DNA from: an uncultured virus (IMG/VR IMGVR_UViG_3300028610_002615)
Taxonomy: Duplodnaviria > Heunggongvirae > Uroviricota > Caudoviricetes
Strand: one strand, 5' to 3'
DNA: 64,000 nt
Virus record (IMG/VR): IMGVR_UViG_3300028610_002615
The notes under the pieces are model-generated. The model made no database searches and had not been told where the DNA came from. It saw nothing but the letters and a program-made list of their open reading frames with translations. Below, piece by piece: positions 50,260 through 63,639 of the stretch. Every line of letters begins with the position of its first letter. Position 1 is the first letter of the stretch. A program made the position numbers and the translations under genes.

Positions 50260-50443
50260 AAGTAATAGAGAAATTGAAGGTTACATTTCTCGAAGGTTGG
50301 GTGTGACAAATTTAACATATTTTTATTCATTCTCCAAATAACTAGTTAAACCACACACCAGTCCTTTCTATGTAGTTTGTTTCTTATATTTTCAAGATTT
50401 TTTTATTAGAACATAATTTAAGACTAAACGTTAGGAGAATGAA

Positions 50444-50992
50444 ATGACCGAAAAAGGAATGATGATTGTCGAAGGGATGAAAACTCTGAGAATCGTTGAA
50501 AAAAAGATGAGCACGAATACCTCTGATATTCAGCGATATTCATCTCAGGTTTCAACCGAACGTCCGCTGTTTGAGACAGAGGACAAACAGAAACAAGCTA
50601 TTAAGGAATTGATCCAGTCAAATGTGGATTTGATGCTTAGGTATCTGAACCTCAAGACTCGGGTCGAGTTCACAAATCTAATGACCACGGTGGAATTGGA
50701 TGGTGAAAAGCATACCATCTCAGAGCTGCTGGTCATACAGAGGAAACTTGCTGCTATGATGTTTGCAACTTATAACGCTTTAAACGACACGGAGGGAAAA
50801 TCGCGACTGAGGTCTTCATATCAGACGCCAGTCCAAACCGGTGGGGAACAACCACATGTTGTCAGGTTTTATAAGGAAGAGGACAAACGAGAGCAAAGTC
50901 GCAAATGGCAAGACCTCATGAACAATATCACAATACGACTTGAGGTCATAAATGCCACGACGCCACTTCTCGACCTCCCCTCCCAGTCGTAG
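50444..50992 (+). CDS. DIP1984-like coiled-coil protein
   Basis: LK.RV..TN..T.V..DG...TISELL..RKL ... LE..NATT pattern. Confidence 0.55.
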   Translation: MTEKGMMIVEGMKTLRIVEKKMSTNTSDIQRYSSQVSTERPLFETEDKQKQAIKELIQSNVDLMLRYLNLKTRVEFTNLMTTVELDGEKHTISELLVIQRKLAAMMFATYNALNDTEGKSRLRSSYQTPVQTGGEQPHVVRFYKEEDKREQSRKWQDLMNNITIRLEVINATTPLLDLPSQS

Positions 50993-51000
50993 AAAATTCG

Positions 51001-51297
51001 AGATTCGGTAACGAAAAAATAGACAAACTGTAAGCCTTCGTATATTGGGTTAAATATGCAAAAAAATATTCCTTAACAGGGAATGGCCTATAAAGCCATT
51101 ACATGACAAAGCTATCAAGACTCAAGATTTAAGCGTCAAGATTAACTCGCCTACCCATGTGAGAAAAAATATAATGGGCATTAAAGAGTCAAGAGCTAAG
51201 ACTAAAGACAGGGGTTCAGGGAAACCGACTGGAGAAATCTAGACTCAAGTGGGGCAGCTTACAGGCAATCAACCACTTCTAGCTGTTATACGGATCT
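51001..51297 (+). ncRNA. Putative ~300-nt structured ncRNA with heptamer repeats
   Basis: Nested long-range pairings 51001-12/51285-97 and 51028-35/51257-64, several internal hairpins, no ORF. Confidence 0.65.
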
Positions 51298-51312
51298 TAT
51301 TTTTTAATTTAT

Positions 51313-51391
51313 CGGTGAGTAGAGGAGTCTGGTTTTTCTCACGTGGTTTGGGTCCACGGGCACGTCAGTTCGAATCTGACCTCACCGACCA
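51313..51391 (+). tRNA. tRNA-Pro(TGG)
   Basis: CGGTGAG/CTCACCG acceptor, CGTGG-TTTGGGT-CCACG, TTCGAAT, CCA. Confidence 0.9.
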
Positions 51392-51439
51392 ACTTTAATT
51401 TGTAAAATATGAAAAATGCTAAAAGGAGAATTGTGAATC

Positions 51440-51709
51440 ATGGTAACATTGTCATTACTCGGTAAAAAACATCGTCGAACATTTGAATCTATTGTTGCAC
51501 CCTTGAAAACCATTGAATCTGATCTATCTTCTTATATAGGAGAACAAGAGGACAAAGTTCTTTCTCTGAATGAAGACAGGAAAAAAATAGATGATGATAT
51601 TCAGGAAGCAACCGTAGAGAAAGCTAAATCAATACACACAGTTAACAAAATTGCTCAGCTATTGGGCAGTGATTTTCAAGAAACAGTTGCCGAAGATGCC
51701 AAAGATTAA
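51440..51709 (+). CDS. Small coiled-coil protein
   Basis: 89 aa, AAGGAG SD. Confidence 0.6.
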   Translation: MVTLSLLGKKHRRTFESIVAPLKTIESDLSSYIGEQEDKVLSLNEDRKKIDDDIQEATVEKAKSIHTVNKIAQLLGSDFQETVAEDAKD

Positions 51710-51714
51710 TAAAC

Positions 51715-52206
51715 ATGAAATGTGAATACGGTTGTGGCCAAGAAGCAAAAGTATTTTTTAAAACTGTAAAAAAATGGTGCTGTTCACAATTTGCAACACA
51801 ATGTTCAGTTGTTATAAAAAGAAGTAAAGAAGGTTTATCAAAATCATATACAACTGGGAAAAGAAAAGTAATAATTCCTGATCAGACAATAGAAAATGGA
51901 ATTAGAAAATGCACAATAACTTTAAGAAAAAATCTTCAAGAAAAATATAGTAACCTATTATTTGAAGATAAACCTCATGTTGAAAGGCGAAGAATTTTAA
52001 ATGAGGAGCAAAAGAACATTTGTGCTATATGTGGAATAGAACCCATATGGAATGACAAACCTTTAAAGCTCCATTACGATCATGTAAATGGAGATAGAAA
52101 AAATAATAAAAGAGAAAATAGTAGATTAATTTGCCCAAATTGTCATTCACAAACTGATACTTATTGCAGATCGATTAAAAAAGTGCCACTGTGGCGTAAT
52201 TGGTAG
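51715..52206 (+). CDS. HNH endonuclease
   Basis: CAICG...LHYDHVNGD..NN..EN.R.ICPNCHSQT; 3' end overlaps tRNA-Leu. Confidence 0.85.
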   Translation: MKCEYGCGQEAKVFFKTVKKWCCSQFATQCSVVIKRSKEGLSKSYTTGKRKVIIPDQTIENGIRKCTITLRKNLQEKYSNLLFEDKPHVERRRILNEEQKNICAICGIEPIWNDKPLKLHYDHVNGDRKNNKRENSRLICPNCHSQTDTYCRSIKKVPLWRNW

Positions 52207-52270
52207 GCGCGCAAGATTTAGGATCTTGTGTCCATAGGGCGTGGGGGTTCGATTCCCTTCAGTGGCACCA
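52185..52270 (+). tRNA. tRNA-Leu(TAG)
   Basis: GCCACTG/CAGTGGC, CAAGA-TTTAGGA-TCTTG, long V arm, CCA. Confidence 0.9.
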
Positions 52271-52285
52271 TTCTAAAGGTGAATC

Positions 52286-52720
52286 ATGAGCGAAAAATTT
52301 TATGAGTATTATTTCCCGTGTGTTGAATGTATTGTAAGGCCGATATGCAAAGATAAAGAACGAATGATGGAGCAAATTAAAGTTAGAGGAGATGTTCCAT
52401 CATTAGGCGTACCAATATGGAATTGGGAAGAAAAGTCTTATCATAAGGGTCTACTTGAGTGTATAATTAATATCTTAAAAAGAGTTACGGATAAAATTTC
52501 ACGAACAGAACCTGAAAATAGGACCAACAGAGAACAGGATAAAATTCCTATGGAATACGTCCATACTCTTATTGATTTGGCAGATGTAATGTGTCATATG
52601 ATTCATTCAACCAGTTGGGACATAGGAACTCTTAAAGAATTTGACAGATTAGAATTATATAATCGACTTGATAAACTCAAGCGTTGGTTATGTTACAAAA
52701 CAGAACATAAAGTTAATTAG
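52286..52720 (+). CDS. PCxxC-family hypothetical protein
   Basis: FPCVECIVRPIC. Confidence 0.65.
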   Translation: MSEKFYEYYFPCVECIVRPICKDKERMMEQIKVRGDVPSLGVPIWNWEEKSYHKGLLECIINILKRVTDKISRTEPENRTNREQDKIPMEYVHTLIDLADVMCHMIHSTSWDIGTLKEFDRLELYNRLDKLKRWLCYKTEHKVN

Positions 52721-52805
52721 CCACCGTCGCTTAGTGGTTGATAGCACCGGATTTGTAATCCGGCGGTGTAAGCCCACGCAGGTTCGAATCCTGCCGGTGG
52801 CTCCA
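52720..52805 (+). tRNA. tRNA-Thr(TGT) with long variable arm
   Basis: GCCACCG/CGGTGGC, CCGGA-TTTGTAA-TCCGG, 14-nt variable region, CCA. Confidence 0.85.
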
Positions 52806-52832
52806 CTCTCTTAGTCAGAAAGGAATTATCAT

Positions 52833-53396
52833 ATGAATCCAGGTGACAATCACAAAAAATTAACAATCGCTCTCTTTGGAACATGTGATAACATTCCATG
52901 GAGAGAAGAGAAATTCATTCCAGTTTATGAAGAAAAAGGAATTGCATGGTACAATCCAGCCCTTGAAAACTGGGATGAATTACTCGAATTAAGCAGACAA
53001 GGCAAATGTGCCAATCCAACTGAGGAAGAAAATTACTATCTCAACAATGCAGAGATCATTGTCTTCCCTATATTAAAAGATTCTTTAGGTCAAGGTAGTC
53101 TTGCTGAAATGGGATTTAGCGTTCAGCGTGTTATTCGCAATATTATGAACGGAAAACAACAATTCCTTGTTACGCTAATTGATGATAAGTGTGAAGATAT
53201 GAGGAAAACTCCAGAAGAACGAATGGATTCAGAAAGAAATCGAGTTCTGGTAAAATCAAAACTGATTGAAAATGTTTCTTATCCTATTATCACACTTGTT
53301 GAAGACCTTAATCAGATGTTAGACATGAGTTTAACTATATATGACATTTTGAAAAAAGAAGGATGTCGAACCGAAGACCAGAAGAAATCAGCGTAA
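52833..53396 (+). CDS. Nucleoside 2-deoxyribosyltransferase-like protein
   Basis: LFGTC...WRE, YNP...W, EE..L..AE...F, GSLAEMG. Confidence 0.65.
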   Translation: MNPGDNHKKLTIALFGTCDNIPWREEKFIPVYEEKGIAWYNPALENWDELLELSRQGKCANPTEEENYYLNNAEIIVFPILKDSLGQGSLAEMGFSVQRVIRNIMNGKQQFLVTLIDDKCEDMRKTPEERMDSERNRVLVKSKLIENVSYPIITLVEDLNQMLDMSLTIYDILKKEGCRTEDQKKSA

Positions 53397-53403
53397 CGTA
53401 TTG

Positions 53404-53481
53404 GCCCCCGTAGCTCAGCGGAATTAGAGCATAGCACTTCTAATGCTAGGGTCGCTGGTTCGAATCCAGTCGGGGGTTCCA
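53404..53481 (+). tRNA. tRNA-Arg(TCT)
   Basis: TAGCA-CTTCTAA-TGCTA, TTCGAAT, CCA. Confidence 0.9.
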
Positions 53482-53502
53482 TATCTTGACTGAAAGGATG
53501 CC

Positions 53503-53736
53503 ATGATAAAAACATTCTTTAAGGATTTATTAATACAATTATATTTGACGTTATCTACTCCGGATCCATGCAAAAGATGTGTGGTCAGAGCATGTTGTTC
53601 TGAAGAATGTAACCAAAGAGCGAACTATAATATCTTATATGGCCCAAACCCGTATACTCAAAAATTCTGTGCTGTTAGTGTCATCTTTGGTATGATAACA
53701 TTCATCTTTGGTGTGGTAACATTCATCTTTAAATAG
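53503..53736 (+). CDS. PCxxC-family membrane protein
   Basis: DPCKRCVVRACC, C-terminal TM. Confidence 0.6.
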   Translation: MIKTFFKDLLIQLYLTLSTPDPCKRCVVRACCSEECNQRANYNILYGPNPYTQKFCAVSVIFGMITFIFGVVTFIFK

Positions 53737-53816
53737 ACCCGTGGTGAAGTCTGGCTCAACACGCAGGGCCTTGGACCCTGTATTTATCCTTGGTTCGAAT
53801 CCAAGCGGGTCTTCCA
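53735..53816 (+). tRNA. tRNA-Gln(TTG), atypical
   Basis: AGACCCG/CGGGTCT, CAGGG-CCTTGGA-CCCTG (C33), CCA. Confidence 0.75.
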
Positions 53817-53832
53817 AATTAGGAAGGTAACA

Positions 53833-54027
53833 ATGGCATTAGGAATTGGTTCAACAATGAAAGAAGATCTCAAAAGAGATCGAGACAGACTCAACGATGA
53901 TTCAATGGCAATCAGTTCAACAATGAAAGAAGATCTCAAAAGAGACCGAGACACACTCGAAGACTCTTCTCTTGCTGTCGGATCTGCTATGAAGGAAGAT
54001 CTAAAAAAAGATCTTGAAAGGGGATGA
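53833..54027 (+). CDS. Small protein of three 22-aa tandem repeats
   Basis: S(T/A)MKEDLK(R/K)D x3; 66-nt DNA repeat. Confidence 0.65.
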   Translation: MALGIGSTMKEDLKRDRDRLNDDSMAISSTMKEDLKRDRDTLEDSSLAVGSAMKEDLKKDLERG

Positions 54028-54262
54028 AATGATATCTCTTCTATTCGGCGTTGGTTATGGCGAAGTAGTTTGGTGGCTTATTAAAGAAGAAAAAAATACA
54101 CTTTCCAGCGCCAAATCTTGGGGTTGGGGTATGATCATATTTAATTTCATGGTGGCGATGGTTGAAGGATCGTTAGTTAACTTGGAGATAAGTATTATCA
54201 TCTTGATTTACGTGTTGGTTATCTTTAATCTGAGGTCAAATGATGGAAAATCAAAAACATAA
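54014..54262 (+). CDS. Small membrane protein
   Basis: Hydrophobic; start probably ATG 54029. Confidence 0.5.
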   Translation: MKGDEMISLLFGVGYGEVVWWLIKEEKNTLSSAKSWGWGMIIFNFMVAMVEGSLVNLEISIIILIYVLVIFNLRSNDGKSKT

Positions 54263-54422
54263 TATTAACTGGAGCCCGAGTATCTCAGTTCCAATAACTC
54301 TATTTAAAACTATACCCATATGTATTACAATAATTATTATTCTAATTCTCGGAGAGCCAGATCTAATTGATGGAACTATAAAGGTTTTGGAAGCTTTAGC
54401 CGAATTTCTTAAATGTAAATAA
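54240..54422 (+). CDS. Small membrane protein
   Basis: TM helix followed by GEPDLID. Confidence 0.55.
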   Translation: MMENQKHNINWSPSISVPITLFKTIPICITIIIILILGEPDLIDGTIKVLEALAEFLKCK

Positions 54423-54423
54423 T

Positions 54424-54513
54424 GGCCCGGTGTTGGAATATGGTAGACATCACAGACTTAAAATCTGTGGCCCCTTAGTGGGCGTGTGGGTTCGATGCCC
54501 TCCCGGGCTACCA
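54424..54513 (+). tRNA. tRNA-Leu(TAA)
   Basis: ACAGA-CTTAAAA-TCTGT, long V arm, CCA. Confidence 0.9.
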
Positions 54514-54536
54514 AACTATAATGAAAGGATGATGTT

Positions 54537-55211
54537 ATGTTAACCCAAGAAAAACTTGCGGAAGGAATCAAGATCATCGCTAAAGACTCTTTGGAGGATG
54601 AGAATGAGGCAATAAAAAAATTTCAAGAATACTTCAAAGACAACTTTTGGCCACCAACAATGAGCAAAACGAAAACTCTTAAAGGTTTGCAGATGTTAAT
54701 GGATGAAGAATTACCCACACCCGATCCCGGAGAAGCAATGGTCGATATGATGGCGATGCAAACTAGGAAGCCGCTCAAGATTTCTAAGAGGAGGAAAGGT
54801 CTTTTGAAAAAGCTTAAGAAGCTTATTGAAGATTCAAAAGATAACGACTGTTCACATCCACATGAAGATCTGGGGATTGCAGCATTCATGCACGGAGGTG
54901 GGTTTACTCCAAATATTGGCGTCCCTGAGTTAATTTGTAAAACATGTGGACTGAATATTTCATTGTTCCGTGGTATCGTTCCGAAGAAATACGGGATCAA
55001 AATTTCAAAAACAAATCTCAAAAAATTAAGTGAGTGGGCAAATCATTGTCTTAACAATCAGAACTATGAGGATAAAAGTACTCATGTCCTGAGTGCAAAC
55101 GATATTACCAAAAACCCACTCATGGCATACAAGAACACAGTGAAATGGGAAAAAGAAGTTCCGGTTGAAATTGTCAACCCGGGTAAAGCAACACTTAATA
55201 CGGGTGTTTAA
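54537..55211 (+). CDS. Hypothetical protein
   Basis: 224 aa, CxH...CxxC. Confidence 0.7.
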   Translation: MLTQEKLAEGIKIIAKDSLEDENEAIKKFQEYFKDNFWPPTMSKTKTLKGLQMLMDEELPTPDPGEAMVDMMAMQTRKPLKISKRRKGLLKKLKKLIEDSKDNDCSHPHEDLGIAAFMHGGGFTPNIGVPELICKTCGLNISLFRGIVPKKYGIKISKTNLKKLSEWANHCLNNQNYEDKSTHVLSANDITKNPLMAYKNTVKWEKEVPVEIVNPGKATLNTGV

Positions 55212-55253
55212 CCCAAAACAGATCCTTAGGATCACTCTTGAAAGGAGCGAAAT

Positions 55254-55739
55254 ATGAAAGTAGCAAAACAATTACTGGTATTGATGATGGCAATAGGACT
55301 TTTATCCGGATGTGGTACCTATTACGGAGCCGCTGGAGGAAAACTGGTTGATGCGGTTCTCATCGAAGATCCCGAAGTCGAAGTTGTCAAAGCAGATCCC
55401 ATAATAACAGTCAAAATCAAAGATAAAGTCCTCTTTGACTTCGATTCTTACAAACTGGATGCCAAAGCGCAGGGAGTAGTTCAGGTAGTTGCCGGCTTGA
55501 TGAAAAGATATCCAGGCACATTACTGGCCTTGGAAGGTCACACCGACAAGTATGGATCAAATGTATACAATGACCAATTATCAATGAATCGCGCTGAAGC
55601 TGTTAAATCTGCCCTGATCAATGAGGGTGTTACTAAAGATCGTATTGATGCAGTTGGTTTCGGAAAAACACAATTCATTCCGGATCTGACCAACCGGCAA
55701 AATCGTCGTGTTATTATTCTATCCATCGGCGATGAGTAA
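55254..55739 (+). CDS. OmpA-family peptidoglycan-binding lipoprotein
   Basis: Lipobox LSGC; VLFDFDS, EGHTD..G...YN..LS..RA..V, GFG, NRRV. Confidence 0.9.
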   Translation: MKVAKQLLVLMMAIGLLSGCGTYYGAAGGKLVDAVLIEDPEVEVVKADPIITVKIKDKVLFDFDSYKLDAKAQGVVQVVAGLMKRYPGTLLALEGHTDKYGSNVYNDQLSMNRAEAVKSALINEGVTKDRIDAVGFGKTQFIPDLTNRQNRRVIILSIGDE

Positions 55740-55746
55740 AATTTGA

Positions 55747-55832
55747 TGCGGTGTCGAGAAGCCTGGACCATCTCGCTGGGCTCATAACCCAGTGGTCATT
55801 TGACCCCGGGGGTTCGAATCCCCCCACCGCTA
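55747..55832 (+). tRNA. Initiator-type tRNA-Met(CAT) with long variable arm
   Basis: 1:72 T-T mismatch, CTGGG-CTCATAA-CCCAG (three G-C pairs), GGTC-ATTT-GACC V-arm; CCA not adjacent. Confidence 0.8.
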
Positions 55833-55880
55833 CTTTGACCCCGCTACCATAGAACAAAATATAAAAAGGAGTAATCTTTT

Positions 55881-56492
55881 ATGCTTTGTTCCTATGGTTG
55901 CGGGGCTCCTTCTTTATTTAAATTGAAAAATGGTAAAGAATGCTGCTCTGAAAGTTATAATTCATGCCCAGTTAATAGATCAAAAAATTCATTGGCTAGT
56001 CTTGGACATGAAGATAGAAATCCAACACATAAAGAAAATATAAAAAGCGTTCATTGTCAATACTGCAATGGTCTTTATGGTAGTGCAGGATTAAAATCTC
56101 ATAAACTTTATTGTTATTTAAATCCAATAAATAAAAGAGACTGCCCAGTTTGTAATCAGGCAATAAAAAATTATAACCAAAATAAAACCTGTTCTCGAAA
56201 ATGTGGTGCAGTTTTAAGCGCTCAAACTGTTGCTTCTGGAGAAGCAAAAGTAAATTATAGATTTATTTGTTTTAAACATCATGGACATAAATGTCTCGTT
56301 TGTGATGAAGATTTATTTATAGTTGCTCATCATGTGAATGGGGATAGGACAAACAACGAACCATCAAATCTATTACCATTTTGCCATACACATCATTTAT
56401 ATATTCATCATAAAGAATATATGTATATCCTAAAAGAATGTGTAGATGAATATTTAATGAACTATAATGGGGGAGGCAGTCGAGACAATTGA
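55881..56492 (+). CDS. HNH endonuclease with Zn-finger repeats
   Basis: CLVCD...HHVNGDRTNN..SNL...C..HH. Confidence 0.85.
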   Translation: MLCSYGCGAPSLFKLKNGKECCSESYNSCPVNRSKNSLASLGHEDRNPTHKENIKSVHCQYCNGLYGSAGLKSHKLYCYLNPINKRDCPVCNQAIKNYNQNKTCSRKCGAVLSAQTVASGEAKVNYRFICFKHHGHKCLVCDEDLFIVAHHVNGDRTNNEPSNLLPFCHTHHLYIHHKEYMYILKECVDEYLMNYNGGGSRDN

Positions 56493-56560
56493 GCTTTACT
56501 GAGCTAACTGCAGGGCTCAGTATCCTCTACGGTATCCTCCCCCCATTACTTTACCACTGT

Positions 56561-56637
56561 GGCGACGTAGCTCAGTCTGGTAGAGTAGCAGTCTCATACG
56601 CTGCGAGTCGTGGGTTCGAATCCCATCGTCGTCACCA
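56561..56637 (+). tRNA. tRNA-Met/Ile2(CAT)
   Basis: GGCGACG/CGTCGTC, GCAGT-CTCATAC-GCTGC, CCA. Confidence 0.85.
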
Positions 56638-56665
56638 ATTAATTTTTTTTGAGAAAGGAATACTA

Positions 56666-56932
56666 ATGAAATACTATCACTACATCCCATTTGCTTTCAC
56701 ATACTGTTTAGTTAAGATGCTTGAATTTTGTTCAGATGACCCAGATCCAAAAGTAAGATGGAAAGTATATTTCTCAAATGGTTGCACGAAAGAAAATTTT
56801 TGCCGCTTTATAGACGATATGAAAAATAATGATCTACACACATATTCGATAATGATCGCTGGTCCAAATATAGTAGGCTGTACATTGATATTAATCATAT
56901 TAACCATATTGTTCATAGGCATTTTTAAATAA
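56666..56932 (+). CDS. Small membrane protein
   Basis: ATG 56666 after GAAAGGA; C-terminal TM. Confidence 0.55.
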   Translation: MKYYHYIPFAFTYCLVKMLEFCSDDPDPKVRWKVYFSNGCTKENFCRFIDDMKNNDLHTYSIMIAGPNIVGCTLILIILTILFIGIFK

Positions 56933-56962
56933 TCAGTTTAATCTTTTAATGAAAGGAAGATC

Positions 56963-57256
56963 ATGAAAAATATCTTTATGAAAATATGTGCTTTTTTCCT
57001 TAGAAGACTAGCAATCATATATAATAACTATGATGTGATGAAAGAACCCAAAAGATTTTATGTAGCAATGGGTTTTGGAATGGGCCCATTTCTTTTGCTT
57101 GAACTTCTTGCAGTAATTACAAACAATAAAGGATTTGAAATTTCTGCATGGGTATGGATCTTATTAATGATCGGCTTGAGATTCTGGTGGGTAAAAGGAC
57201 AATTATATCTTTGGCTACCAGGAACACATGAACATCATTACTTGCATTTTAAATAA
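56963..57256 (+). CDS. Small membrane protein
   Basis: Two TM segments, GAAAGGA SD. Confidence 0.6.
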   Translation: MKNIFMKICAFFLRRLAIIYNNYDVMKEPKRFYVAMGFGMGPFLLLELLAVITNNKGFEISAWVWILLMIGLRFWWVKGQLYLWLPGTHEHHYLHFK

Positions 57257-57262
57257 TAATTT

Positions 57263-57352
57263 GGTGGGATAACCATAATTTGGTACTGGAGCTGGTTGCT
57301 ACCCAGTTCAGGTTCATAGCCTGTGCAGGTTCAAGTCCTGTTCCCACCGCCA
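57263..57352 (+). tRNA. tRNA-Ser(GCT)
   Basis: GGTGGGA/TCCCACC, GCTGG-TTGCTAC-CCAGT, long V arm, G73 CCA. Confidence 0.85.
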
Positions 57353-57372
57353 TACTTTTGAAAGGATTAATC

Positions 57373-57552
57373 ATGAGTAAAAAATGTTCTTCTTGCGGAG
57401 AAGGAAGTGAAAAACTTTATATGCACTCAAGATGCCACATCGAAGAACCAACATGGGCAATCTTGGACGAGGAAAAAAATGAGCTTGAAATTATTTGTGC
57501 TAAATGTAGACAATCAATTACAACATTTAAAATTTTGAGGGTTGTAAAATGA
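57373..57552 (+). CDS. Small Cys-rich protein
   Basis: ATG 57373 after GAAAGGA; CSSC..HSRCH..CAKC. Confidence 0.55.
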   Translation: MSKKCSSCGEGSEKLYMHSRCHIEEPTWAILDEEKNELEIICAKCRQSITTFKILRVVK

Positions 57553-57600
57553 AGAAGCTCTTAATGAAGGAAAGCAATTGATGAGAAAGAAAGGAAAATC

Positions 57601-57912
57601 ATGCTCCCAATATATACCATAACAACAATACCACGTGAGTTTCCTCATAAGGATTCACGTTGTATAGGATGGCTTGAAAGTTGTCATGCAGCATTTCAAG
57701 AAGTTAGAAACAACTCCGGAGATATGTATGAAGAAGGTTATTATCACTATGCAGTCATTGAAGAAGTTACACCAGGAATATACACATTTCCAAGGAAAGA
57801 ATTTTGGTTTGAGTGGAGCAGGGGAAAGGACGGGATTATATCTCCTGGCTATGTCATACTAGAGAAAAAACCAAACAGATTCAACAATGTTGTCTGCTTT
57901 AGCATGGGGTGA
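57601..57912 (+). CDS. Hypothetical protein
   Basis: RCIGW...N..DM.E..Y.YAVIEEV..GIY. Confidence 0.65.
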   Translation: MLPIYTITTIPREFPHKDSRCIGWLESCHAAFQEVRNNSGDMYEEGYYHYAVIEEVTPGIYTFPRKEFWFEWSRGKDGIISPGYVILEKKPNRFNNVVCFSMG

Positions 57913-57915
57913 AGA

Positions 57916-58224
57916 ATGTATAAAATTGAAATTAAGTGGGACTTTAGAAGTCCAACTATGGCAGTATTGACTGGAGAAGCCAGGATAGGTCACATAGATA
58001 TGGGAATGTTGACTGACATAGATTCTACTCCATTCTCAATCAAAAAAGAGAGACATAGTCTTGGTTACGAGGGATGTCCAGCAATATTCCAAAGAGCTAA
58101 ACCATTACTGGATATAATGGTTCATTCATATTATGATGGAATGCTTATGAGAAATGAATCTATAATATGGTTCAAAGAATGCTATAGAAAGAATAACGAA
58201 GTGTTCTTAACTATACCAGATTAA
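57916..58224 (+). CDS. Hypothetical protein
   Basis: Operon-packed 102 aa. Confidence 0.55.
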   Translation: MYKIEIKWDFRSPTMAVLTGEARIGHIDMGMLTDIDSTPFSIKKERHSLGYEGCPAIFQRAKPLLDIMVHSYYDGMLMRNESIIWFKECYRKNNEVFLTIPD

Positions 58225-58225
58225 G

Positions 58226-58441
58226 GTGAATAAAATGGCTGACAAGATAATATTTAATTGGTCACTATTTTCCGATGTAGAGCTCCAATTATCAAAAACT
58301 GAGGAAATAGTCATAAAAGAACATTTTAATATTTGGGTCGAAGGTAACTCAGGCATTGAAGATTGCTCAGCTCCAGAGATGAAAGAGAAGTTTAATACAT
58401 TTAAATCTGCCTGGATTATGTCTCAAATGTTTACAAATTAA
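58226..58441 (+). CDS. Hypothetical protein
   Basis: Operon-packed; start uncertain. Confidence 0.5.
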   Translation: MNKMADKIIFNWSLFSDVELQLSKTEEIVIKEHFNIWVEGNSGIEDCSAPEMKEKFNTFKSAWIMSQMFTN

Positions 58442-58451
58442 GGAGGGTAAT

Positions 58452-58757
58452 TTGAACTATAGAATAGAGAAAGTTGGTGAGGTTGAGTCGGGTATACAAT
58501 GGGAAAACCTCCCACCTGAAACAAAAACAAAACATGTTGCATTAAAAGTTATTTCTAATAGTGGACTTTTCAAAAAAGATCTTGGAACAGCTCTCATTTC
58601 ACATAAATTCTATAATGCAATAAATGAAGATTTAGATTTAAGAAATGATATCCTAATTACAATTTCTTTTGCATTCCAAGATCCAGAAAAGACTTTTAAT
58701 CAATTAATGACAGAGATGGAAAAACAATGGAAGAGAGAAGACGAAAAGGAAGTTTGA
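58452..58757 (+). CDS. Hypothetical protein
   Basis: TTG start after AGGAGG. Confidence 0.55.
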   Translation: MNYRIEKVGEVESGIQWENLPPETKTKHVALKVISNSGLFKKDLGTALISHKFYNAINEDLDLRNDILITISFAFQDPEKTFNQLMTEMEKQWKREDEKEV

Positions 58758-59074
58758 CTGAATTAGCAGTTGCTAAAGCGCTATTAGCAAAAGGCTATTC
58801 TGTATCATTTCCATATGGAGAAAATCAACGATATGATCTAGTTGTTGAGATGAATAATGGATTGAAAAAAGTTCAATGTAAACATGCTAGATATTCAGAA
58901 GGAAAAATAGTATTTCAATGTTCAGGAACAATAGGTCCGTATACCAATGATGCCGATTTCTTTGGAGTCTATTCATCTGAAATTGATAAAGCTTATTTAA
59001 TTCCAGTATCAAATGTTGGGATTAATCAATGTACTTTATTAGTTGAGAGCACTGCTAAACAATACGAAATTTAA
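58727..59074 (+). CDS. PD-(D/E)XK endonuclease (group I intron-associated type)
   Basis: KG...E..V...L...GY.VS.P.GE..RYDLVVE......VQCK; ends 2 nt before tRNA-Ser. Confidence 0.8.
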   Translation: MEERRRKGSLTELAVAKALLAKGYSVSFPYGENQRYDLVVEMNNGLKKVQCKHARYSEGKIVFQCSGTIGPYTNDADFFGVYSSEIDKAYLIPVSNVGINQCTLLVESTAKQYEI

Positions 59075-59076
59075 AC

Positions 59077-59165
59077 GGAGGGGTGGTCAAGTATGGTGTG
59101 ACAACGCTCTTGAAAAGCGTCGGGTGTCAAAAGCCTTGTAGGTTCGAATCCTATCCCCTCCGCCA
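59077..59165 (+). tRNA. tRNA-Ser(TGA)
   Basis: GGAGGGG/CCCCTCC, ACGCT-CTTGAAA-AGCGT, long V arm, G73 CCA. Confidence 0.9.
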
Positions 59166-59181
59166 CTTTGAAAGGAACAAA

Positions 59182-59355
59182 ATGGTTAAAATAACAGAGC
59201 CATGTGTTGATTGCATATGTTTTCCAATGTGTGTAAATCAATCTATAATCAGATGCAGCATATTATATAAATATGTATCAACCAAAATAAATATGCGTGG
59301 TGAATTTCTTAAACCGGAACATTTTCCCAATGTTGTGTCAGTATGGGAAGGTTAA
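59182..59355 (+). CDS. PCxxC-family small protein
   Basis: ATG 59182 after GAAAGGA; EPCVDCICFPMC. Confidence 0.55.
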   Translation: MVKITEPCVDCICFPMCVNQSIIRCSILYKYVSTKINMRGEFLKPEHFPNVVSVWEG

Positions 59356-59376
59356 CCAAAAAAGGATAATGTTACT

Positions 59377-59817
59377 ATGAAGACCAAAATACATACGGAT
59401 TTTGATCAATGGTACGCTGAACAGGCAGCTCAGATCAATCAGCTGCCGATTAGCTCTGTACATACGAGGCGCGACGAGCTCAAGGTCCAGCTAGAAAACT
59501 TACACAATTTAATGCGTGAAGGAAATCTCACCGACGAGAGACGAAAATATTACAAAGGACGTCGCAAATTCATTACCCGGTTAATCTCACACACCAACGA
59601 GCGCATCAAGCTGTTTAACATCGTCGCTCACAATGGAGTGGCCAAAAATCTGGCTCTTAGATTCGTCCAGATAGCCGCTGAGGAACTGCCACAAGGACTT
59701 TTTCAACGGATTTATGCTATAAGTGCCATGGAAGAAGAACAGGAAGAAAGTAGCATTGAAGACATCCGACGATTTATTGCTGAATTTAAAGATCGCTTTG
59801 AACTGGAGGGCATATGA
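59377..59817 (+). CDS. Hypothetical protein
   Basis: 146 aa, visibly more GC-rich than neighbours. Confidence 0.65.
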   Translation: MKTKIHTDFDQWYAEQAAQINQLPISSVHTRRDELKVQLENLHNLMREGNLTDERRKYYKGRRKFITRLISHTNERIKLFNIVAHNGVAKNLALRFVQIAAEELPQGLFQRIYAISAMEEEQEESSIEDIRRFIAEFKDRFELEGI

Positions 59818-59842
59818 CATTCGAATCCTGTCCCTTCCGCCA
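59805..59842 (+). pseudogene. tRNA-Ser-like remnant (T-loop, acceptor 3' strand, CCA)
   Basis: GGAGGG...TTCGAATCCTGTCCCTTCCGCCA; no D or anticodon arm. Confidence 0.6.
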
Positions 59843-59862
59843 ACTTTTGAAAGGCAATCATA

Positions 59863-60165
59863 ATGTCAGAAGGATATGAAAAATTTAAAGATTTTATTTC
59901 CAGTATAAATCTAAAGGCAATCGGTGGAGGTAATTTTAAGATTGGAAAAAAGTATGATGTATACTTTGAAGAATTATTTCTGGGTTTAACTTTAGATGAT
60001 AATCTTCTTTATGTTTATTATGAAAATTGTCCAGGTAGAGACTACTCTATTTTTAAATGGAATAAATCAAAAGAAGACTTTGACGATTTTGTTACAATCA
60101 TTGAAGAGTTGATGGATCGAACTACTATGGTCGGTTTAGCTTTTCATTTTATCAACAATAAATAA
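59863..60165 (+). CDS. Hypothetical protein
   Basis: 100 aa, GAAAGG SD. Confidence 0.6.
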   Translation: MSEGYEKFKDFISSINLKAIGGGNFKIGKKYDVYFEELFLGLTLDDNLLYVYYENCPGRDYSIFKWNKSKEDFDDFVTIIEELMDRTTMVGLAFHFINNK

Positions 60166-60182
60166 TCAAAGGATATGTTGCT

Positions 60183-60542
60183 ATGGGAATCGAAGTCTAT
60201 ACCGAAATACCAACTCCATTCAGAATAGCTGGACCATCTTATTCTCCACTCAAAACTGAAATTGAAGAATATGAAAGAGTTCATATAGGTGAAGGATACT
60301 ATGGCATTTTATTCCACAATGATCATGTAAACCTATGGCATATGGCTCTGGAAGATTGCGGTGCTTTGATAGGAACTGATCACTCGAAGATGAAATTAGT
60401 TAGAAAAGTCAAAGCTGATGTTTCAGGCGGTAACACAGAACTTATGAAAAAGCAGATTGAAATGGGAAAGAAACAACTGGCTATAGCAGATTATATTAGC
60501 CCAGAAGGATGGTTCAACCGCTTTCGGAAGGAGAAGAAATGA
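60183..60542 (+). CDS. Hypothetical protein
   Basis: 119 aa. Confidence 0.6.
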   Translation: MGIEVYTEIPTPFRIAGPSYSPLKTEIEEYERVHIGEGYYGILFHNDHVNLWHMALEDCGALIGTDHSKMKLVRKVKADVSGGNTELMKKQIEMGKKQLAIADYISPEGWFNRFRKEKK

Positions 60543-60946
60543 GAAAAGCAAGACTCATAAAAGAGTTTATTGAACGAGATAACCAAGGAGACAGAACTCT
60601 CTGTGGGTTTCACAAAACAATTCAAGTTGATGATGTTCCTCCTATTGGTTATACAGTTACATTTCCAGAAGATGGCAGACTTGGCAGATTTTATATAGAA
60701 CGTGCTGATATTCAGAGTGAGAGTGGGAACGTTACTCTATACAGTACCAAGGAAATACAACGATATGAAAATTGGAACTATGAGCAATCTATATACATTA
60801 TGTTAAGCATGAGAACACAAGGATGGACAATCAAAAAACCTCATAAGAGAATTAAAGAAAAATGGAAAGAAGCCCAAGAAAAATTCAAAGTAAAAACATC
60901 ATCACGAAGCATCTTCACAGATACGAAGTTAAACATGGTCCTATAA
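60539..60946 (+). CDS. Hypothetical protein
   Basis: Probable ATG 60539 after AAGGAG (ATGA overlap). Confidence 0.55.
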   Translation: MRKARLIKEFIERDNQGDRTLCGFHKTIQVDDVPPIGYTVTFPEDGRLGRFYIERADIQSESGNVTLYSTKEIQRYENWNYEQSIYIMLSMRTQGWTIKKPHKRIKEKWKEAQEKFKVKTSSRSIFTDTKLNMVL

Positions 60947-61314
60947 CAGTTTTTGTTCATGACAATACAAACAGTAAAGATTGGAGAACAATAACTGCGT
61001 TTACAAAAAATGCTTCGGTTGCAGAATTATCTGACTTTGGTTCAATAATTCATATTGAAGGGTTAGATAACCCAGTTTATTACTTTAATCGAATCAAAGC
61101 TAAACTAAAGTTTGAAGGGACTGGAGAAGGAAAAGCTCTGATGATTGAAGTCTGTAAATTAGCTGATAAGCGTGGAATTACAATTCTTAATGAACTCAAT
61201 CCCTATGGTAAACGAGATATGGAAAGTCTCAAGGAATTCTTCGAAGCCTCTGGATTTAAAGAATTCAATGACAATAACACGATGGTAAGAAAACCAAAGG
61301 TGAAGAATGAATAA
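60862..61314 (+). CDS. GNAT-like acetyltransferase
   Basis: EGTGEGKALM acetyl-CoA motif, L..FF...GF; start uncertain. Confidence 0.6.
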   Translation: MERSPRKIQSKNIITKHLHRYEVKHGPITVFVHDNTNSKDWRTITAFTKNASVAELSDFGSIIHIEGLDNPVYYFNRIKAKLKFEGTGEGKALMIEVCKLADKRGITILNELNPYGKRDMESLKEFFEASGFKEFNDNNTMVRKPKVKNE

Positions 61315-61696
61315 ACTAATTCTAACAGTCGGATTGCCAAAAAGTGGAAAGACAACATGGGCATTAAAACAAGGGCATCCAGTTGTAAGTAGGGATGCAA
61401 TTCGATTAGCCCTACATGGTGAAGCATATTTACAATCGGCAGAGAATATGGTCAGCACAATTGAAGCATATATGGTTGCATCTCTATTCTATGCTGGTCA
61501 TGAAACTGTTATTATTGACGCCGCTCATTTAAGAAAAAGATATGTAGACAGATGGGAAAGCTCACTATGGGAACTTGAATTAAAGTTCTTTTCAACTCCA
61601 GCAGATATTTGCATCGAGAGAGCAGTGGCTGACGAAAAACCTGAATTAATTCCCATTATTAAAGCAATGGACAAACCTGAATACTATAACGGGTAA
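61307..61696 (+). CDS. P-loop kinase (AAA_33/polynucleotide-kinase-like)
   Basis: VGLPKSGKTTWA, SRDAIR, VIIDA, C.ER. Confidence 0.8.
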   Translation: MNKLILTVGLPKSGKTTWALKQGHPVVSRDAIRLALHGEAYLQSAENMVSTIEAYMVASLFYAGHETVIIDAAHLRKRYVDRWESSLWELELKFFSTPADICIERAVADEKPELIPIIKAMDKPEYYNG

Positions 61697-61714
61697 AGTG
61701 AAAGGATAATAAAC

Positions 61715-61876
61715 ATGCCACCAATGGATGTAATCATAGGAAAAAGTGTTGCTATAATCTTAGTTGTGCTATTTATAGGAATCATATTTGCTGATTTATT
61801 TGCAAGTAAGAAATCTATCATCATAACTATGTGGAAGCAAATAGCGGCTCGCATATCTAAAAATCGGAAGAAATAG
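61715..61876 (+). CDS. Small membrane protein (53 aa)
   Basis: Read by hand: MPPMDVIIGKSVAIILVVLFIG...MWKQIAARISKNRKK*; GAAAGGA SD. Confidence 0.5.
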   Translation: MPPMDVIIGKSVAIILVVLFIGIIFADLFASKKSIIITMWKQIAARISKNRKK

Positions 61877-61878
61877 AT

Positions 61879-61949
61879 ACCACGTGTAGCTCACCGGTAG
61901 AGCCTGAAAAGTTCGGTAGAAAGCAGTTCAATTTTGCTCCGTGGCACCA
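61879..61949 (+). pseudogene. Degenerate tRNA (Phe-like)
   Basis: TAGCTCACCGGTAGAGC D arm, CTGAAAA loop lacking stem, GTTCAATT, GTGGCACCA end. Confidence 0.55.
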
Positions 61950-61967
61950 AATTTGAAAGGAATTGTT

Positions 61968-62348
61968 ATGTCTAGAGAAGCTGCTATATTTGTACTCGTC
62001 AGTGATGAAGATCAAACCATAAAACAATTGATATTGAAACACAAAGAACAGATCATGTCACTCATTAGATTTCATCAGCATGTAAATGAACTCAAAGAGA
62101 TGTCTGATTTTGAAGACACTCCTAATGAATATTTTGATAAAGTATTTCTCGATTATGATACATGCTACACCGAGTATGATCCTGACTATAAGAAAATATT
62201 CGACGTAAAAAAGGCAGAGTCTCTAATCGTTATTCTTACAGTCAACAGTGCTGGTTGTTGGGAAGGTCTTCAACCAATTCCATTAATCTATGGAAGAGGA
62301 ACTATGAGATACTATACAAAACTAAGAACTATTCATATGCCCAGTTAA
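61968..62348 (+). CDS. Hypothetical protein
   Basis: ATG 61968 after GAAAGGA. Confidence 0.6.
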   Translation: MSREAAIFVLVSDEDQTIKQLILKHKEQIMSLIRFHQHVNELKEMSDFEDTPNEYFDKVFLDYDTCYTEYDPDYKKIFDVKKAESLIVILTVNSAGCWEGLQPIPLIYGRGTMRYYTKLRTIHMPS

Positions 62349-62441
62349 AATGAATCTCCATAATCCCATAATTTTAAGGGCGTGTGGAAGCAAATAACGG
62401 CTCGCATATCTGAAAATCGACAGAAGTAAAATGCCACACGT

Positions 62442-62520
62442 GGAGAGATAGCTCAGTCCGGTAGTAGCGCGAGGGTGAAGACCTCGGTCGTCACAGGTTC
62501 AATTCCTGTTCTCTCCACCA
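62442..62520 (+). tRNA. tRNA-Phe(GAA)
   Basis: GGAGAGA/TCTCTCC, CGAGG-GTGAAGA-CCTCG, CCA. Confidence 0.85.
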
Positions 62521-62540
62521 TAAATTAGAAAGGATTCTAA

Positions 62541-62774
62541 ATGAATGATAAACTATACAAAATTCTAACAAAGCTTCCAAGAAAAAATCTGATTCATTTA
62601 ATGTGGGAAGCTTTAGATGAAATGCAAGCACATAATGCACGCTCAAGAATGGAATGTATAATGTTAGCCCTTGAAGGTGCCACAGAAAGTAAAGAAAAGA
62701 AAGATGGTAGTATGTCATACAAAATTAAATCTTTAGCAGAAGTCAAACGGATAACCGAAAACATGGGACTTTGA
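62541..62774 (+). CDS. Hypothetical protein
   Basis: 77 aa, GAAAGGA SD. Confidence 0.6.
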   Translation: MNDKLYKILTKLPRKNLIHLMWEALDEMQAHNARSRMECIMLALEGATESKEKKDGSMSYKIKSLAEVKRITENMGL

Positions 62775-62778
62775 AATA

Positions 62779-62961
62779 ATGACAATAATTGAATTTTTAG
62801 AAGAAGATAGACATAAGAAACTATCATATGCATTAACCGATGGTTATGAGGTTATTATATGTGAACCTGGTATTGATGGAGAAACACTACTTACTACAGA
62901 TATTCACTCAATTCTAGAGGAGTTAATGGAGCACTATGGGCTGGAAAATGAATCTCCATAA
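62779..62961 (+). CDS. Hypothetical protein
   Basis: 60 aa acidic. Confidence 0.5.
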   Translation: MTIIEFLEEDRHKKLSYALTDGYEVIICEPGIDGETLLTTDIHSILEELMEHYGLENESP

Positions 62962-62967
62962 TTTTAA

Positions 62968-63044
62968 GGGCGTGTGAAGGCGAGAGGCTAGCCGTCATCC
63001 TTACAAGGTGAAATACGTAGGTTCGACTCCTACCGCGCCTACCA
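62968..63044 (+). tRNA. tRNA-Val(TAC)
   Basis: GGGCGTG/CGCGCCT, TCATC-CTTACAA-GGTGA, TTCGACT, CCA. Confidence 0.85.
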
Positions 63045-63116
63045 TTACATTTCATTTGCAAAACATTACATAAAACGTAACATTTTGCAATTACTGCATC
63101 ATTGAAAGGATCATCC

Positions 63117-63359
63117 ATGGCACAAAAAGGTGGTTACTGGGTCCAAGCTGATATAGAAGATGAAGAAATTACATACTCATTTGAAGCTCACAAACCAAGA
63201 AAGTTAAGCAAACGTCTTCCTTGGTTGTATTGTGCTTATTGTGGATTGTTATTCTTAAGGAATCCGATAACTAAATGGTGTATAAAGATGGGATGTAATC
63301 ATTCTTATCATAATCAATATCAATACATGCTCAATAAAATGACAAAAAGGAGGGCTTGA
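63117..63359 (+). CDS. Small Cys/His protein
   Basis: ATG after GAAAGGA; H...W.YC..CGL..L.N..T...I..GC. Confidence 0.55.
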   Translation: MAQKGGYWVQADIEDEEITYSFEAHKPRKLSKRLPWLYCAYCGLLFLRNPITKWCIKMGCNHSYHNQYQYMLNKMTKRRA

Positions 63360-63547
63360 ATCATGGGGCGGTGTCACATAAAAATTCCAAACGAAACTTC
63401 CATATAGTTGAACTTGGCGGTAATAAGTATAAACTTCAAATTAAAAAATTCGGAATATGGTTCTATGTTAGAAAGAATTTCAAACCAGTAGTGTTTGAAA
63501 GTTTTTCTAGTGTGGTTCATGAAGTCCAAAGAAGAACAAAAAAATGA
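63356..63547 (+). CDS. Hypothetical protein
   Basis: 63 aa; TTGA overlap. Confidence 0.45.
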   Translation: MNHGAVSHKNSKRNFHIVELGGNKYKLQIKKFGIWFYVRKNFKPVVFESFSSVVHEVQRRTKK

Positions 63548-63551
63548 ATAA

Positions 63552-63639
63552 GCGTGGGCTGGGCATGGTTGGCGAGCCCAAGAGATTGTAAATCTCCCGT
63601 CCTCGGACTGTGGCGGTTCGATCCCGTCCCTGCGCACCA
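63552..63639 (+). tRNA. tRNA-Tyr(GTA)
   Basis: GCGTGGG/CCTGCGC, GAGA-TTGTAAA-TCTC, long V arm, CCA. Confidence 0.85.

Follow-up and report, generated by a model that had tools for sequence, protein, structure and literature searches.

GOLLD and ROOL are large, multiply pseudoknotted RNAs of phage and prophage origin and of unknown function that often lie beside transfer RNA (tRNA) islands and sometimes have a tRNA inside, as described in the sections of PMC12286853 that concern them. Another kind of system is that of HutP, the hexamer of which reads two sites of three XAG motifs, one per face with a linker between, and both sites lie just downstream of hutP, according to the part of PMC2425495 that deals with the complex. 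The present analysis concerns a 64,000-nucleotide (nt) stretch of DNA, hereafter the window, from an uncultured virus of the Caudoviricetes (IMG/VR record IMGVR_UViG_3300028610_002615), in which a gene for a protein of 182 amino acids (aa) is followed on the same strand by an RNA element of 297 nt carrying two tracts of phased U-N-A-A-G units. Gene and RNA are read here, with a probability of roughly 0.55, as a two-part phage ribonucleoprotein in which the protein subunits bind the phased units, and the pair looks like an undescribed protein–RNA particle.

Conservation and fold of the RNA

The region 51001–51297 (+) is, on comparison with its homologues, a conserved structured RNA. Detection was performed with an iterated nhmmer profile seeded from the window element. 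A total of 62 distinct elements were aligned in 480 columns with MAFFT (alignment A2), which is not structure-aware, so that the percentages for pseudoknots are likely underestimates. A structure of 50 pairs in nine helices was written by hand on A2, and its parts, together with the gene and the two tracts, are located in the window as follows.

50444–50992 (+): protein gene, 182 aa, predicted product all-helical with one beta-hairpin, the proposed partner; TAG stop at 50990–50992
51001–51297 (+): structured RNA, bounded by the outermost bases of P1, 297 nt; the single window match of the nhmmer profile is 50999–51297
51001–51013 (+): P1 5' strand AGATTCG-GTAAC (51001–51012) and G51013; partner strand GTTAT-A-CGGATCT at 51285–51297; 12 pairs, 11 changed on both sides, 90.4% paired
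51014–51027 (+): A-rich joining strand, with G-(U/A)-A-A-A at its start near invariant (A2 columns G18, A20, A21, A22)
51028–51034 (+): P2 5' strand CTGTAAG, paired with the P6 loop CTTACAG (51258–51264) as a pseudoknot; 6 of 7 pairs changed on both sides, 86.8% paired
51035–51059 (+): PK1, an H-type pseudoknot, CCT/GGG (51035–37 with 51047–49) and GTATAT/ATATGC (51040–45 with 51054–59); 3/3 and 6/6 pairs changed on both sides, 80.1% and 68.1% paired
51066–51099 (+): variable region with two local hairpins, ATTCC/GGAAT (51068–72 with 51080–84) and ATGGC/GCCAT (51083–87 with 51095–99), with 7-nt loops TTAACAG and CTATAAA; poorly aligned among homologues
51115–51145 (+): repeat tract 1, four U-N-A-A-G units from 51115, 51122, 51129 and 51136, then a fifth partial unit U-A-A leading into PK2
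51146–51178 (+): PK2, an H-type pseudoknot between the tracts, CTCGC/GTGAG (51146–50 with 51159–63) and CCCAT/ATGGG (51154–58 with 51174–78); 5/5 pairs of each stem changed on both sides, 86.7% and 77.3% paired
51182–51207 (+): repeat tract 2, four units with the final G at 51186, 51193, 51200 and 51207
51209–51232 (+): variable hairpin (A2 columns 363–404), absent or much larger in homologues
51231–51242 (+): conserved A-rich strand (consensus GGAAAAAU) and P4 5' strand CTAG (51239–42), which pairs with 51279–82; 4 pairs, 100% paired, of which two never vary and two have both bases changed, from CG to UA in 13 sequences and from AU to GC in 18
51247–51278 (+): P5 (AAGTGG with CCACTT, 51247–52 with 51273–78) enclosing the hairpin P6 (GC 51254–55 with GC 51265–66); 6/6 and 2/2 pairs changed on both sides, 89.3% and 86.1% paired
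51279–51297 (+): P4 3' strand, invariant C-U-G junction and P1 3' strand, with C284, G287, C288 and T289 of A2 invariant

Standard pairs fill 85.7% of the 2942 cells of this structure, compared with 40.4–45.5% when the 3' partners are slid by 1–3 columns, and the covariation score is 0.474 against at most 0.149 for the slid partners. Compensatory change, with both sides altered, was found at 46 of the 50 proposed pairs. The three pseudoknot helices taken by themselves are 78.1% paired (31–57% when slid), with a score of 0.393 against at most 0.173. Similarly, RNAalifold run with no supplied structure recovers P1, the first stem of PK2, P4 and P5, with 23 of its 27 pairs compensatory, and adds a G51013–U51284 pair that is G-U in 62/62 sequences. 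The stack of P4, P5 and P6 adjoins the closing helix, with only C51283 between P4 and P1. In the GC-rich relatives (L038–L050), whole helices are swapped for other sequences with the pairing kept the same. The structure has frequent G-U pairs (U-G in 48/62 at columns 10/473 and G-U in 62/62 at columns 18/464). In the opposite orientation these positions would not pair, and the selection is therefore placed on the + strand RNA.

An earlier note, made from the letters of this DNA alone, had proposed that the region folds into a structured RNA that closes on itself and carries local stems and two runs of four heptamers. The closing helix, the CTGTAAG/CTTACAG pairing, the local stems and both runs are all present in the sequence, and the covariation speaks for the fold. 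Two of the pairings were placed differently: CTGTAAG/CTTACAG is real but is a pseudoknot of a 5' strand with a hairpin loop, and CCCAT/ATGGG, taken for a local hairpin, does pair but as the second stem of PK2.

In the variable region, a hairpin loop of the form Y-U-N-N-N-R-N is found in 42 of 84 distinct elements, as compared with a mean of 7.7 and a maximum of 16 in shuffles. Loops of 7 nt recur in this region, for example CUGAUAA in 12 cases and CUUGAAA in 9 cases, and fit the anticodon-loop or U-turn pattern.

A search of the whole window with Rfam 15 at gathering scores, a check that the earlier note had asked for, yielded only eight tRNA matches and no GOLLD, ROOL, RNase P, transfer-messenger RNA (tmRNA), signal recognition particle or 6S RNA. 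At expectation values (E) up to 10, the window element and two diverse relatives (L043 and L075) gave only chance-level snoRNA or skipping-rope matches, or nothing. A tmRNA was considered for its pseudoknots and closed ends and was set aside, as neither ARAGORN nor Rfam finds one in the window. These searches bear on a ribozyme with an RNase P-like core that would act on the adjoining tRNA precursors with the protein as a cofactor, a reading favored by the crossing topology of P2 and P4, the invariant junction bases and the position beside tRNA arrays. The strand order (P1, P2 5', P4 5', P2 3', P4 3', P1) and the A-rich strand before P4 are also features that we take to recall the RNase P core. 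However, even at E up to 10, the three diverse members matched no RNase P, tmRNA or other model, a tRNA within 1 kb is lacking in 30 of the 64 elements for which 1 kb or more of downstream sequence is available, and the repeat tracts would be left unexplained; the chance given to this reading is very slim.

The phased repeat tracts

The heptamer runs span 51114–51141 and 51181–51208, with approximately 40 nt between the two clusters. The pattern AAG-N4-AAG-N4-AAG-N4-AAG occurs at exactly these two places on both strands of the 64 kb, compared with 0.03 expected, and none of 100 shuffles reaches two occurrences. Among the 62 aligned sequences, the consensus of the unit is U-n-A-A-G, and the two positions after it (a, then c/u) are weakly conserved. 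The U of tract 1 is kept in 60–62 of the 62 sequences in units 1–3 and in 56 in unit 4, the first A in 56–62, and the G in 61–62 in units 1, 2, and 4 and in 51 in unit 3. Units 1, 3, and 4 are the best kept of tract 2, where the first A of all three and the G of units 3 and 4 are found in 62/62. The second A of the unit is sometimes C, and some units read ACG or AUG instead of AAG. Hairpin insertions are tolerated at the third unit of tract 1 and in the middle of tract 2 (L041, L042, L050, L055, L072, L047, and L053).

Both tracts lie outside every covarying helix and more than 80 nt from either strand of P1, in keeping with the unpaired state that the earlier note had assigned to them. Being unpaired, near invariant and held at a fixed phase, they point to a reader of their sequence, which would be either a protein or specific tertiary contacts. 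A coding origin was considered for the tract from 51114, which has 46 open codons up to the TAG at 51240–42, and it was rejected, as there is no start codon, the conservation has a period of 7 and not 3, and homologues differ by gaps of 1–2 nt. The sole frame of at least 40 aa that overlaps the element is a 49-aa GTG frame (51249–51398), which extends into the downstream tRNA.

With a period of 7 bp and an arrangement in two clusters, the direct repeats are similar to known iteron sites. The heptads could act at the DNA level as iterons, such as those of a centromere or an operator to which the protein binds, with the RNA fold incidental, and the single-stranded tracts themselves hold no strand-specific evidence. 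The tracts are, however, at fixed places in a covarying scaffold that uses G-U pairs, which indicates selection on the + strand at the RNA level, and the protein has no recognizable DNA-binding domain in Pfam scans of the window protein and 77 relatives. This is the slimmest of the possibilities considered, bordering on negligible.

The sequence of the units suggests another role. Anticodon loops follow a rule of a pyrimidine and U, three bases, a purine and A, and the position counts of the heptamer fit it, with C/U before the invariant U, a variable base and then A-A-G-a; in addition, the reverse complement of the heptamer fits a lysine-type anticodon loop. Eight anticodon-loop-like heptamers (Y-U-N-A-A-G-A) could form a decoy or docking platform, displayed on a ladder of protein beside tRNA-like hairpins or entire tRNAs. 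The platform would sequester an anticodon nuclease or tRNA enzyme of the host, or bind to tRNA loops, thereby shielding the tRNA supply of the phage while the protein holds the shape. The excess of anticodon-like 7-nt hairpin loops over the shuffle mean agrees with this, as do the divergent variants that carry a tRNA gene or a permuted-looking tRNA-like domain (L116 and L153, by eye), and the phage encodes RtcB (E 3.3e-81) and 13 tRNAs. RtcB has a role in tRNA repair. The case is nevertheless one of pattern matching with no target identified: the units are not in stem-loops, some are ACG or AUG, and half of the elements have no anticodon-like hairpin. A G after an anticodon ending in A is also unusual for real tRNAs. 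Such a platform is therefore held to be distinctly improbable; if it were true, it would be the first ribonucleoprotein of its kind and give the first function for a protein of the DIP1984 fold.

Linkage to the protein gene and the proposed ribonucleoprotein

Homologues of the protein were collected from four sources. A collection clustered at 90% gave 122 homologues among 139 candidates, metagenome contigs gave 114 confirmed stretches, of which the best 80 were kept, IMG/VR gave 35 protein-homologue loci, and contigs of metagenome-assembled genomes gave nine loci labeled as Synergistaceae/Synergistetes, Desulfovibrionaceae, Bacillota, and Deltaproteobacteria. The protein profile matches 1068 cluster representatives when E is limited to 1e-3 and 172 when the limit is 1e-30, and the family was found in sediments, bioreactors, and other habitats on contigs of up to 277 kb. 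From the 124 protein-derived loci, 11 duplicates and 10 loci with less than 350 nt of downstream sequence were removed, which left 103 assessable loci. A full RNA lies downstream of the protein gene on the same strand in 88 of these 103, a partial one in three, and no profile match was found in 12, a recurrence beside homologous genes that upholds the structured RNA of the earlier note. Between the stop codon and P1, the median distance is 17.5 nt; the gap is at most 30 nt in 61 of the 88 and extends up to 710 nt where other elements are inserted.

The linkage was also examined from the side of the RNA. IMG/VR was scanned with a strict heptamer pattern, one that recovers 23 of the 83 known elements, and this gave 27 loci, nine with a full RNA; all nine have the protein gene just upstream, and three of them are on contigs that had not been reached via the protein. 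Tandem repeats, coding sequence and matches to the heptamers only make up the remaining 18, among them one divergent variant (L153) with a weak protein match. Clustering of the flanking open reading frames (ORFs) revealed no other widely common neighbor: once an antisense artefact over the gene is set aside, the top real neighbor occurs at 19 of 91 loci. As the flanking genes are not widely shared, the conserved unit is the gene with its RNA, and the two are inherited together while their neighbors change.

The most divergent homologues, with 24%–37% protein identity, have no full RNA profile match. Seven of the 10 most divergent distinct loci possess AAG chains of at least four units within 700 nt downstream (the background is 38 chains in 476 kb), four of these seven have two chains, echoing the 4 + 4 layout, and two more of the 10 have an AAG chain upstream. 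The AAG tracts are thus the feature of the RNA that stays longest with the protein, being kept in the most divergent loci. In some divergent variants, a real tRNA gene comes after the conserved A-rich 5' motif (L117:3565–3830, L122:3770–3990, L124, and L001:2150–2410). In two others (L116:3560–3690 and L153:1320–1465), the motif is followed by a tRNA-like domain that, read by eye, is apparently circularly permuted, in the order of T-arm, acceptor stem closed by a loop, and D-arm, with the AAG heptamer tracts after it; the predicted folds are only partly consistent with this reading.

The tRNAs within these variants bring the element close to the ornate phage RNAs. In the manner of ROOL and GOLLD, the scaffold could self-assemble as RNA only, with the tracts as flexible linkers or as strands for RNA–RNA contact, and the protein would be merely co-transcribed or a helper in folding or assembly. 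The element is likewise phage-encoded and multiply pseudoknotted, with a tRNA within 1 kb downstream in 34 of the 64 elements that have at least that much sequence there, and, in the sections of PMC12286853 that concern them, ROOL and GOLLD have no known protein partner and the GOLLD linker region likewise bears tRNAs in some cases. Against this, neither ROOL nor GOLLD shows anything comparable to the strict inheritance together with a single protein gene, the near invariance of U, A, A, and G at a 7-nt phase would not be kept in linkers, no Rfam model of either RNA matches, and the 297 nt are well below the size of both. An RNA-only particle is accordingly considered unlikely, although the least unlikely of the alternatives to the ribonucleoprotein.

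The protein partner was characterized by prediction. AlphaFold2 run with 77 sequences gave five helices and one beta-hairpin with a predicted local distance difference test (pLDDT) value of 91.3, and the sole clear Foldseek match in the PDB is 3kdq (E 5.3e-4, probability 1.00, template modeling scores of 0.55/0.64 over 172 columns), the next match being at E 0.6. The 3kdq structure is that of a Corynebacterium diphtheriae protein of unknown function, available as a crystal structure since 2009. The window protein itself has no Pfam or NCBIfam match at E up to 0.1, including PF20935 and NF038048, and the protein profile found nothing among PDB sequences. Among the 77 family members, 42 have weak matches to PF20935 (DUF6847; best E 3.9e-7) and 47 to NF038048 (DIP1984_fam; best E 3.6e-7), with none shown reaching the curated cut-off of 70 bits. 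The gene had been called DIP1984-like in the earlier note, and the label seems fair for the modeled fold but not for family membership. All 77 members match phrog_1491, the PHROGs label of which, "tail fiber protein", is treated as unverified. In the ESM Atlas, the nearest clusters are unnamed viral ones and one auto-named "Siphovirus Gp157 family" at 0.95, a family that is absent among the Pfam results listed for the 77 relatives. No PADLOC defense model matches consistently, none being hit by more than three of the 77 members.

The protein is predicted to self-associate, as the earlier note had supposed of the partner. Modeling with four copies gave a score of 0.72, compared with 0.00 for the best of three controls. 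In a calibration that used two copies, 20 of 30 proteins solved as pairs attained this mark, as did one of 23 solved as single chains. At least 83% of the contacts are common to the runs, and the partner pLDDT is 84. The most conserved block, R-L-E-V-I-N-A-T-T (165–173), lies outside the predicted interface, which may suggest a candidate functional site. The comparison with TRAP drawn in the earlier note stands as an analogy only: HutP and TRAP are absent from the 25 Pfam families listed for the window protein and the 77 relatives at E up to 1.

In the proposed ribonucleoprotein, the mRNA for the helical DIP1984-fold protein would bear the RNA of approximately 300 nt at its 3' end. The RNA folds to a closed, multiply pseudoknotted scaffold, made up of P1, the stack of P4, P5, and P6, the P6 loop reaching back to the 5' side, PK1, and PK2. 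This scaffold would present the two single-stranded tracts of four U-N-A-A-G units each at 7-nt spacing, with PK2 as a fixed spacer between them. The self-associating protein would then bind with one subunit per unit, giving possibly up to eight subunits or four dimers that bridge the tracts, in a reading of units likened to that of HutP and TRAP on spaced triplets. The RNA would end at the U-tract past P1 or be cut free where a tRNA abuts. The strongest argument for this particle is evolutionary, because the protein and the AAG tracts persist while the neighbors, the base composition, and much of the scaffold change. The role is probably tied to the tRNA supply of the phage, a conjecture that would fit the tRNA islands, the built-in tRNAs, the anticodon-like loops, and RtcB.

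Several results weigh against the ribonucleoprotein. On the side of the RNA, none of 500 shuffles reaches the observed pairing or covariation values, a control that ignores relatedness, so that the figure is not a probability and sliding the partners makes the fairer control. Folded singly, the sequence has an unremarkable energy (z = -1.14, with 15 of 100 shuffles folding as well), and the support for the RNA rests on the comparison of homologues and not on thermodynamics. On the side of the linkage, four loci with 51%–58% identity (L021, L027, L035, and L052) have the protein and neither RNA nor AAG chains in the sequence examined, which shows that the protein can exist without the RNA, and the two canonical bacterial DIP1984 genes found in 2 of the 301 genomes searched have no AAG tract downstream. 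On the side of the protein, there is no known RNA-binding domain, the family is not strongly basic (median isoelectric point 8.6, with 7 of 77 members below 6.5), and the self-association score, obtained with four copies, may reflect likeness to the multi-chain crystal 3kdq.

Locus context, transcript ends and comparison with known systems

The window comes from a T4-like phage, as genes for a Gp23-type capsid, a T4-type portal, a family B polymerase, and a DnaB-like helicase are present. ARAGORN found 13 tRNA genes of 75–90 nt, from the tRNA-Pro at 51313 to 63639, eight of which pass the Rfam tRNA cut-off. An RtcB RNA ligase gene was observed at 19426–20553 (+) (Pfam E 3.3e-81) and, alongside the 13 tRNAs and the T4-type genes, suggests that the phage invests in the supply or repair of tRNA. 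A 163-aa ORF (51715–52206, +) with weak HNH or endonuclease VII similarity (E 0.003–0.007) separates the first tRNA gene from the second and may, from these matches, be a homing endonuclease inside the tRNA array. Among GenBank phages, no DNA match was found, and tblastn with three family members against 50,697 records gave no match. Two further features follow the RNA directly.

51298–51312 (+): U-rich tail TATTTTTTAATTTAT, directly 3' of P1, a possible termination signal
51313–51391 (+): tRNA-Pro (UGG) found by ARAGORN, below the Rfam tRNA cut-off

The D-arm of this tRNA-Pro is unusually long. In a relative with a 100% identical protein (L002), the tRNA-Pro at the same place is quite different in sequence.

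P1 begins nine bases past the stop codon of the 182-aa ORF, and the only nearby promoter-like site is upstream of the protein gene (50389–50417). As the space between stop codon and P1 (about 9–20 nt) leaves no room for a promoter, we infer from the layout that gene and RNA are co-transcribed, with the RNA at the 3' end of the protein's mRNA. A T-rich tail (at least 9 T in the 20 nt past P1) is present in 52 of 79 distinct elements and absent in 27. A simple terminator scan called none at 51298–51312, as the helix P1 is of long range. In 27 of 79 elements, a tRNA on the same strand begins no more than 60 nt from the 3' end, mostly at 8–20 nt, and these are tRNAs for Pro, Met, Thr, and Leu; several elements that have no T-rich tail carry a tRNA instead. 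The 3' end is plausibly produced either by a terminator-like end or by release through tRNA 5' processing, the former being the commoner arrangement because of the 52 U-rich tails. The earlier note had proposed release by RNase P at the tRNA-Pro, which fits the 27 tRNA-abutted elements and gives way to the U-rich tail in the larger number.

The same ends bear on a HutP-type control in cis, where P1 and the U-tract would be the terminator of the protein's own mRNA and the protein bound to the tracts would tune read-through into the downstream tRNA or other genes. The short distance to the stop codon and the U-rich tail right after P1 agree with it, as do the same-strand tRNA or other genes that follow, and in the part of PMC2425495 that treats the complex, the hut terminator with its two XAG sites likewise lies just past hutP. 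A scaffold of 300 nt with three covarying pseudoknots and an invariant junction nevertheless far exceeds the needs of an attenuator, the tracts are remote from P1, and no conserved alternative pairing that competes with P1 was seen in the alignment and pairing analyses. Furthermore, the T-rich tail is lacking in 27 of 79 elements, including 7 of the 27 abutted by a tRNA, and the downstream content is not conserved. Control in cis is for these reasons regarded as rather improbable, and the ribonucleoprotein is preferred.

Other arrangements were observed at related loci. In L021:560–2007, L027:3008–5504, L035:479–1040, and L052:2949–5445, the protein gene is followed by tandem units of approximately 250 nt, each made up of a tRNA gene with conserved sequence on either side, and the two flanks could apparently pair with each other. 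An insert of approximately 290 nt between protein gene and RNA (L063:3041–3330 and L056:898–1166) is GC-rich, looks structured and has a tRNA-like piece. A phage tmRNA (L118:2306–2661; Rfam 116 bits, tag ANPDLALQAA) lies approximately 350 nt upstream of a divergent protein homologue. On an unrelated viral contig (L131:1420–1560, minus as fetched), eight AAG heptamers are followed by about seven complementary CTTAAAT units, and the two sets would form a long hairpin.

If the proposed ribonucleoprotein is true, the element is a new class of structured RNA of approximately 300 nt with three pseudoknots, and its phased U-N-A-A-G code is a new example of proteins reading spaced RNA motifs. The DIP1984/DUF6847 fold would also gain its first functional lead; no literature on its mechanism was found beyond one mention of DIP1984 in a plasmid survey, and no function is known although the structure dates from 2009. 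The gene–RNA pair recurs in about a hundred uncultivated phages, and the protein family, with its 1068 cluster representatives, is not rare. Unlike GOLLD and ROOL beside their tRNA islands, the RNA comes with an obvious protein partner, which makes the proposal directly testable. No description of the element was found in the literature covered, subscription journals lying outside that coverage.

Among the systems with which the locus was compared, type III toxin–antitoxin loci have tandem repeats of approximately 30–45 nt upstream of an endoribonuclease toxin gene. They were rejected, as the units here are 7 nt long, lie downstream of the gene and inside a larger scaffold, and PADLOC gives no consistent match. 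Bacterial Ro60 (Rsr) is encoded next to its noncoding partner, the Y RNA (YrlA), some members of which have a tRNA-like module. The locus resembles this pair in having an RNA gene beside a protein gene and divergent variants with tRNA-like domains, and differs from it in having neither a Ro60-like protein nor a match to a Y RNA model. With the DIP1984 family, the window protein shares the fold of 3kdq by Foldseek, whereas it scores nothing against NF038048 or PF20935.

In the trp leader of Bacillus, spaced triplets in single-stranded RNA are read by TRAP, a symmetric protein oligomer. The element is like the RNAs of HutP and TRAP in its regularly spaced short motifs in unpaired RNA, here in two clusters just downstream of a gene, and unlike them in that the protein is helical and 3kdq-like, the unit is U-N-A-A-G with four per cluster, and the tracts are set in a large covarying scaffold. 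From GOLLD and ROOL, it differs in size (approximately 300 nt compared with 500–800), in its two phased U-N-A-A-G tracts, and in the dedicated protein gene directly upstream, a conserved partner that argues against an RNA-only particle. GOLLD and ROOL are thus the closest systems by context, and HutP with its RNA is the closest by logic; the element belongs to neither.

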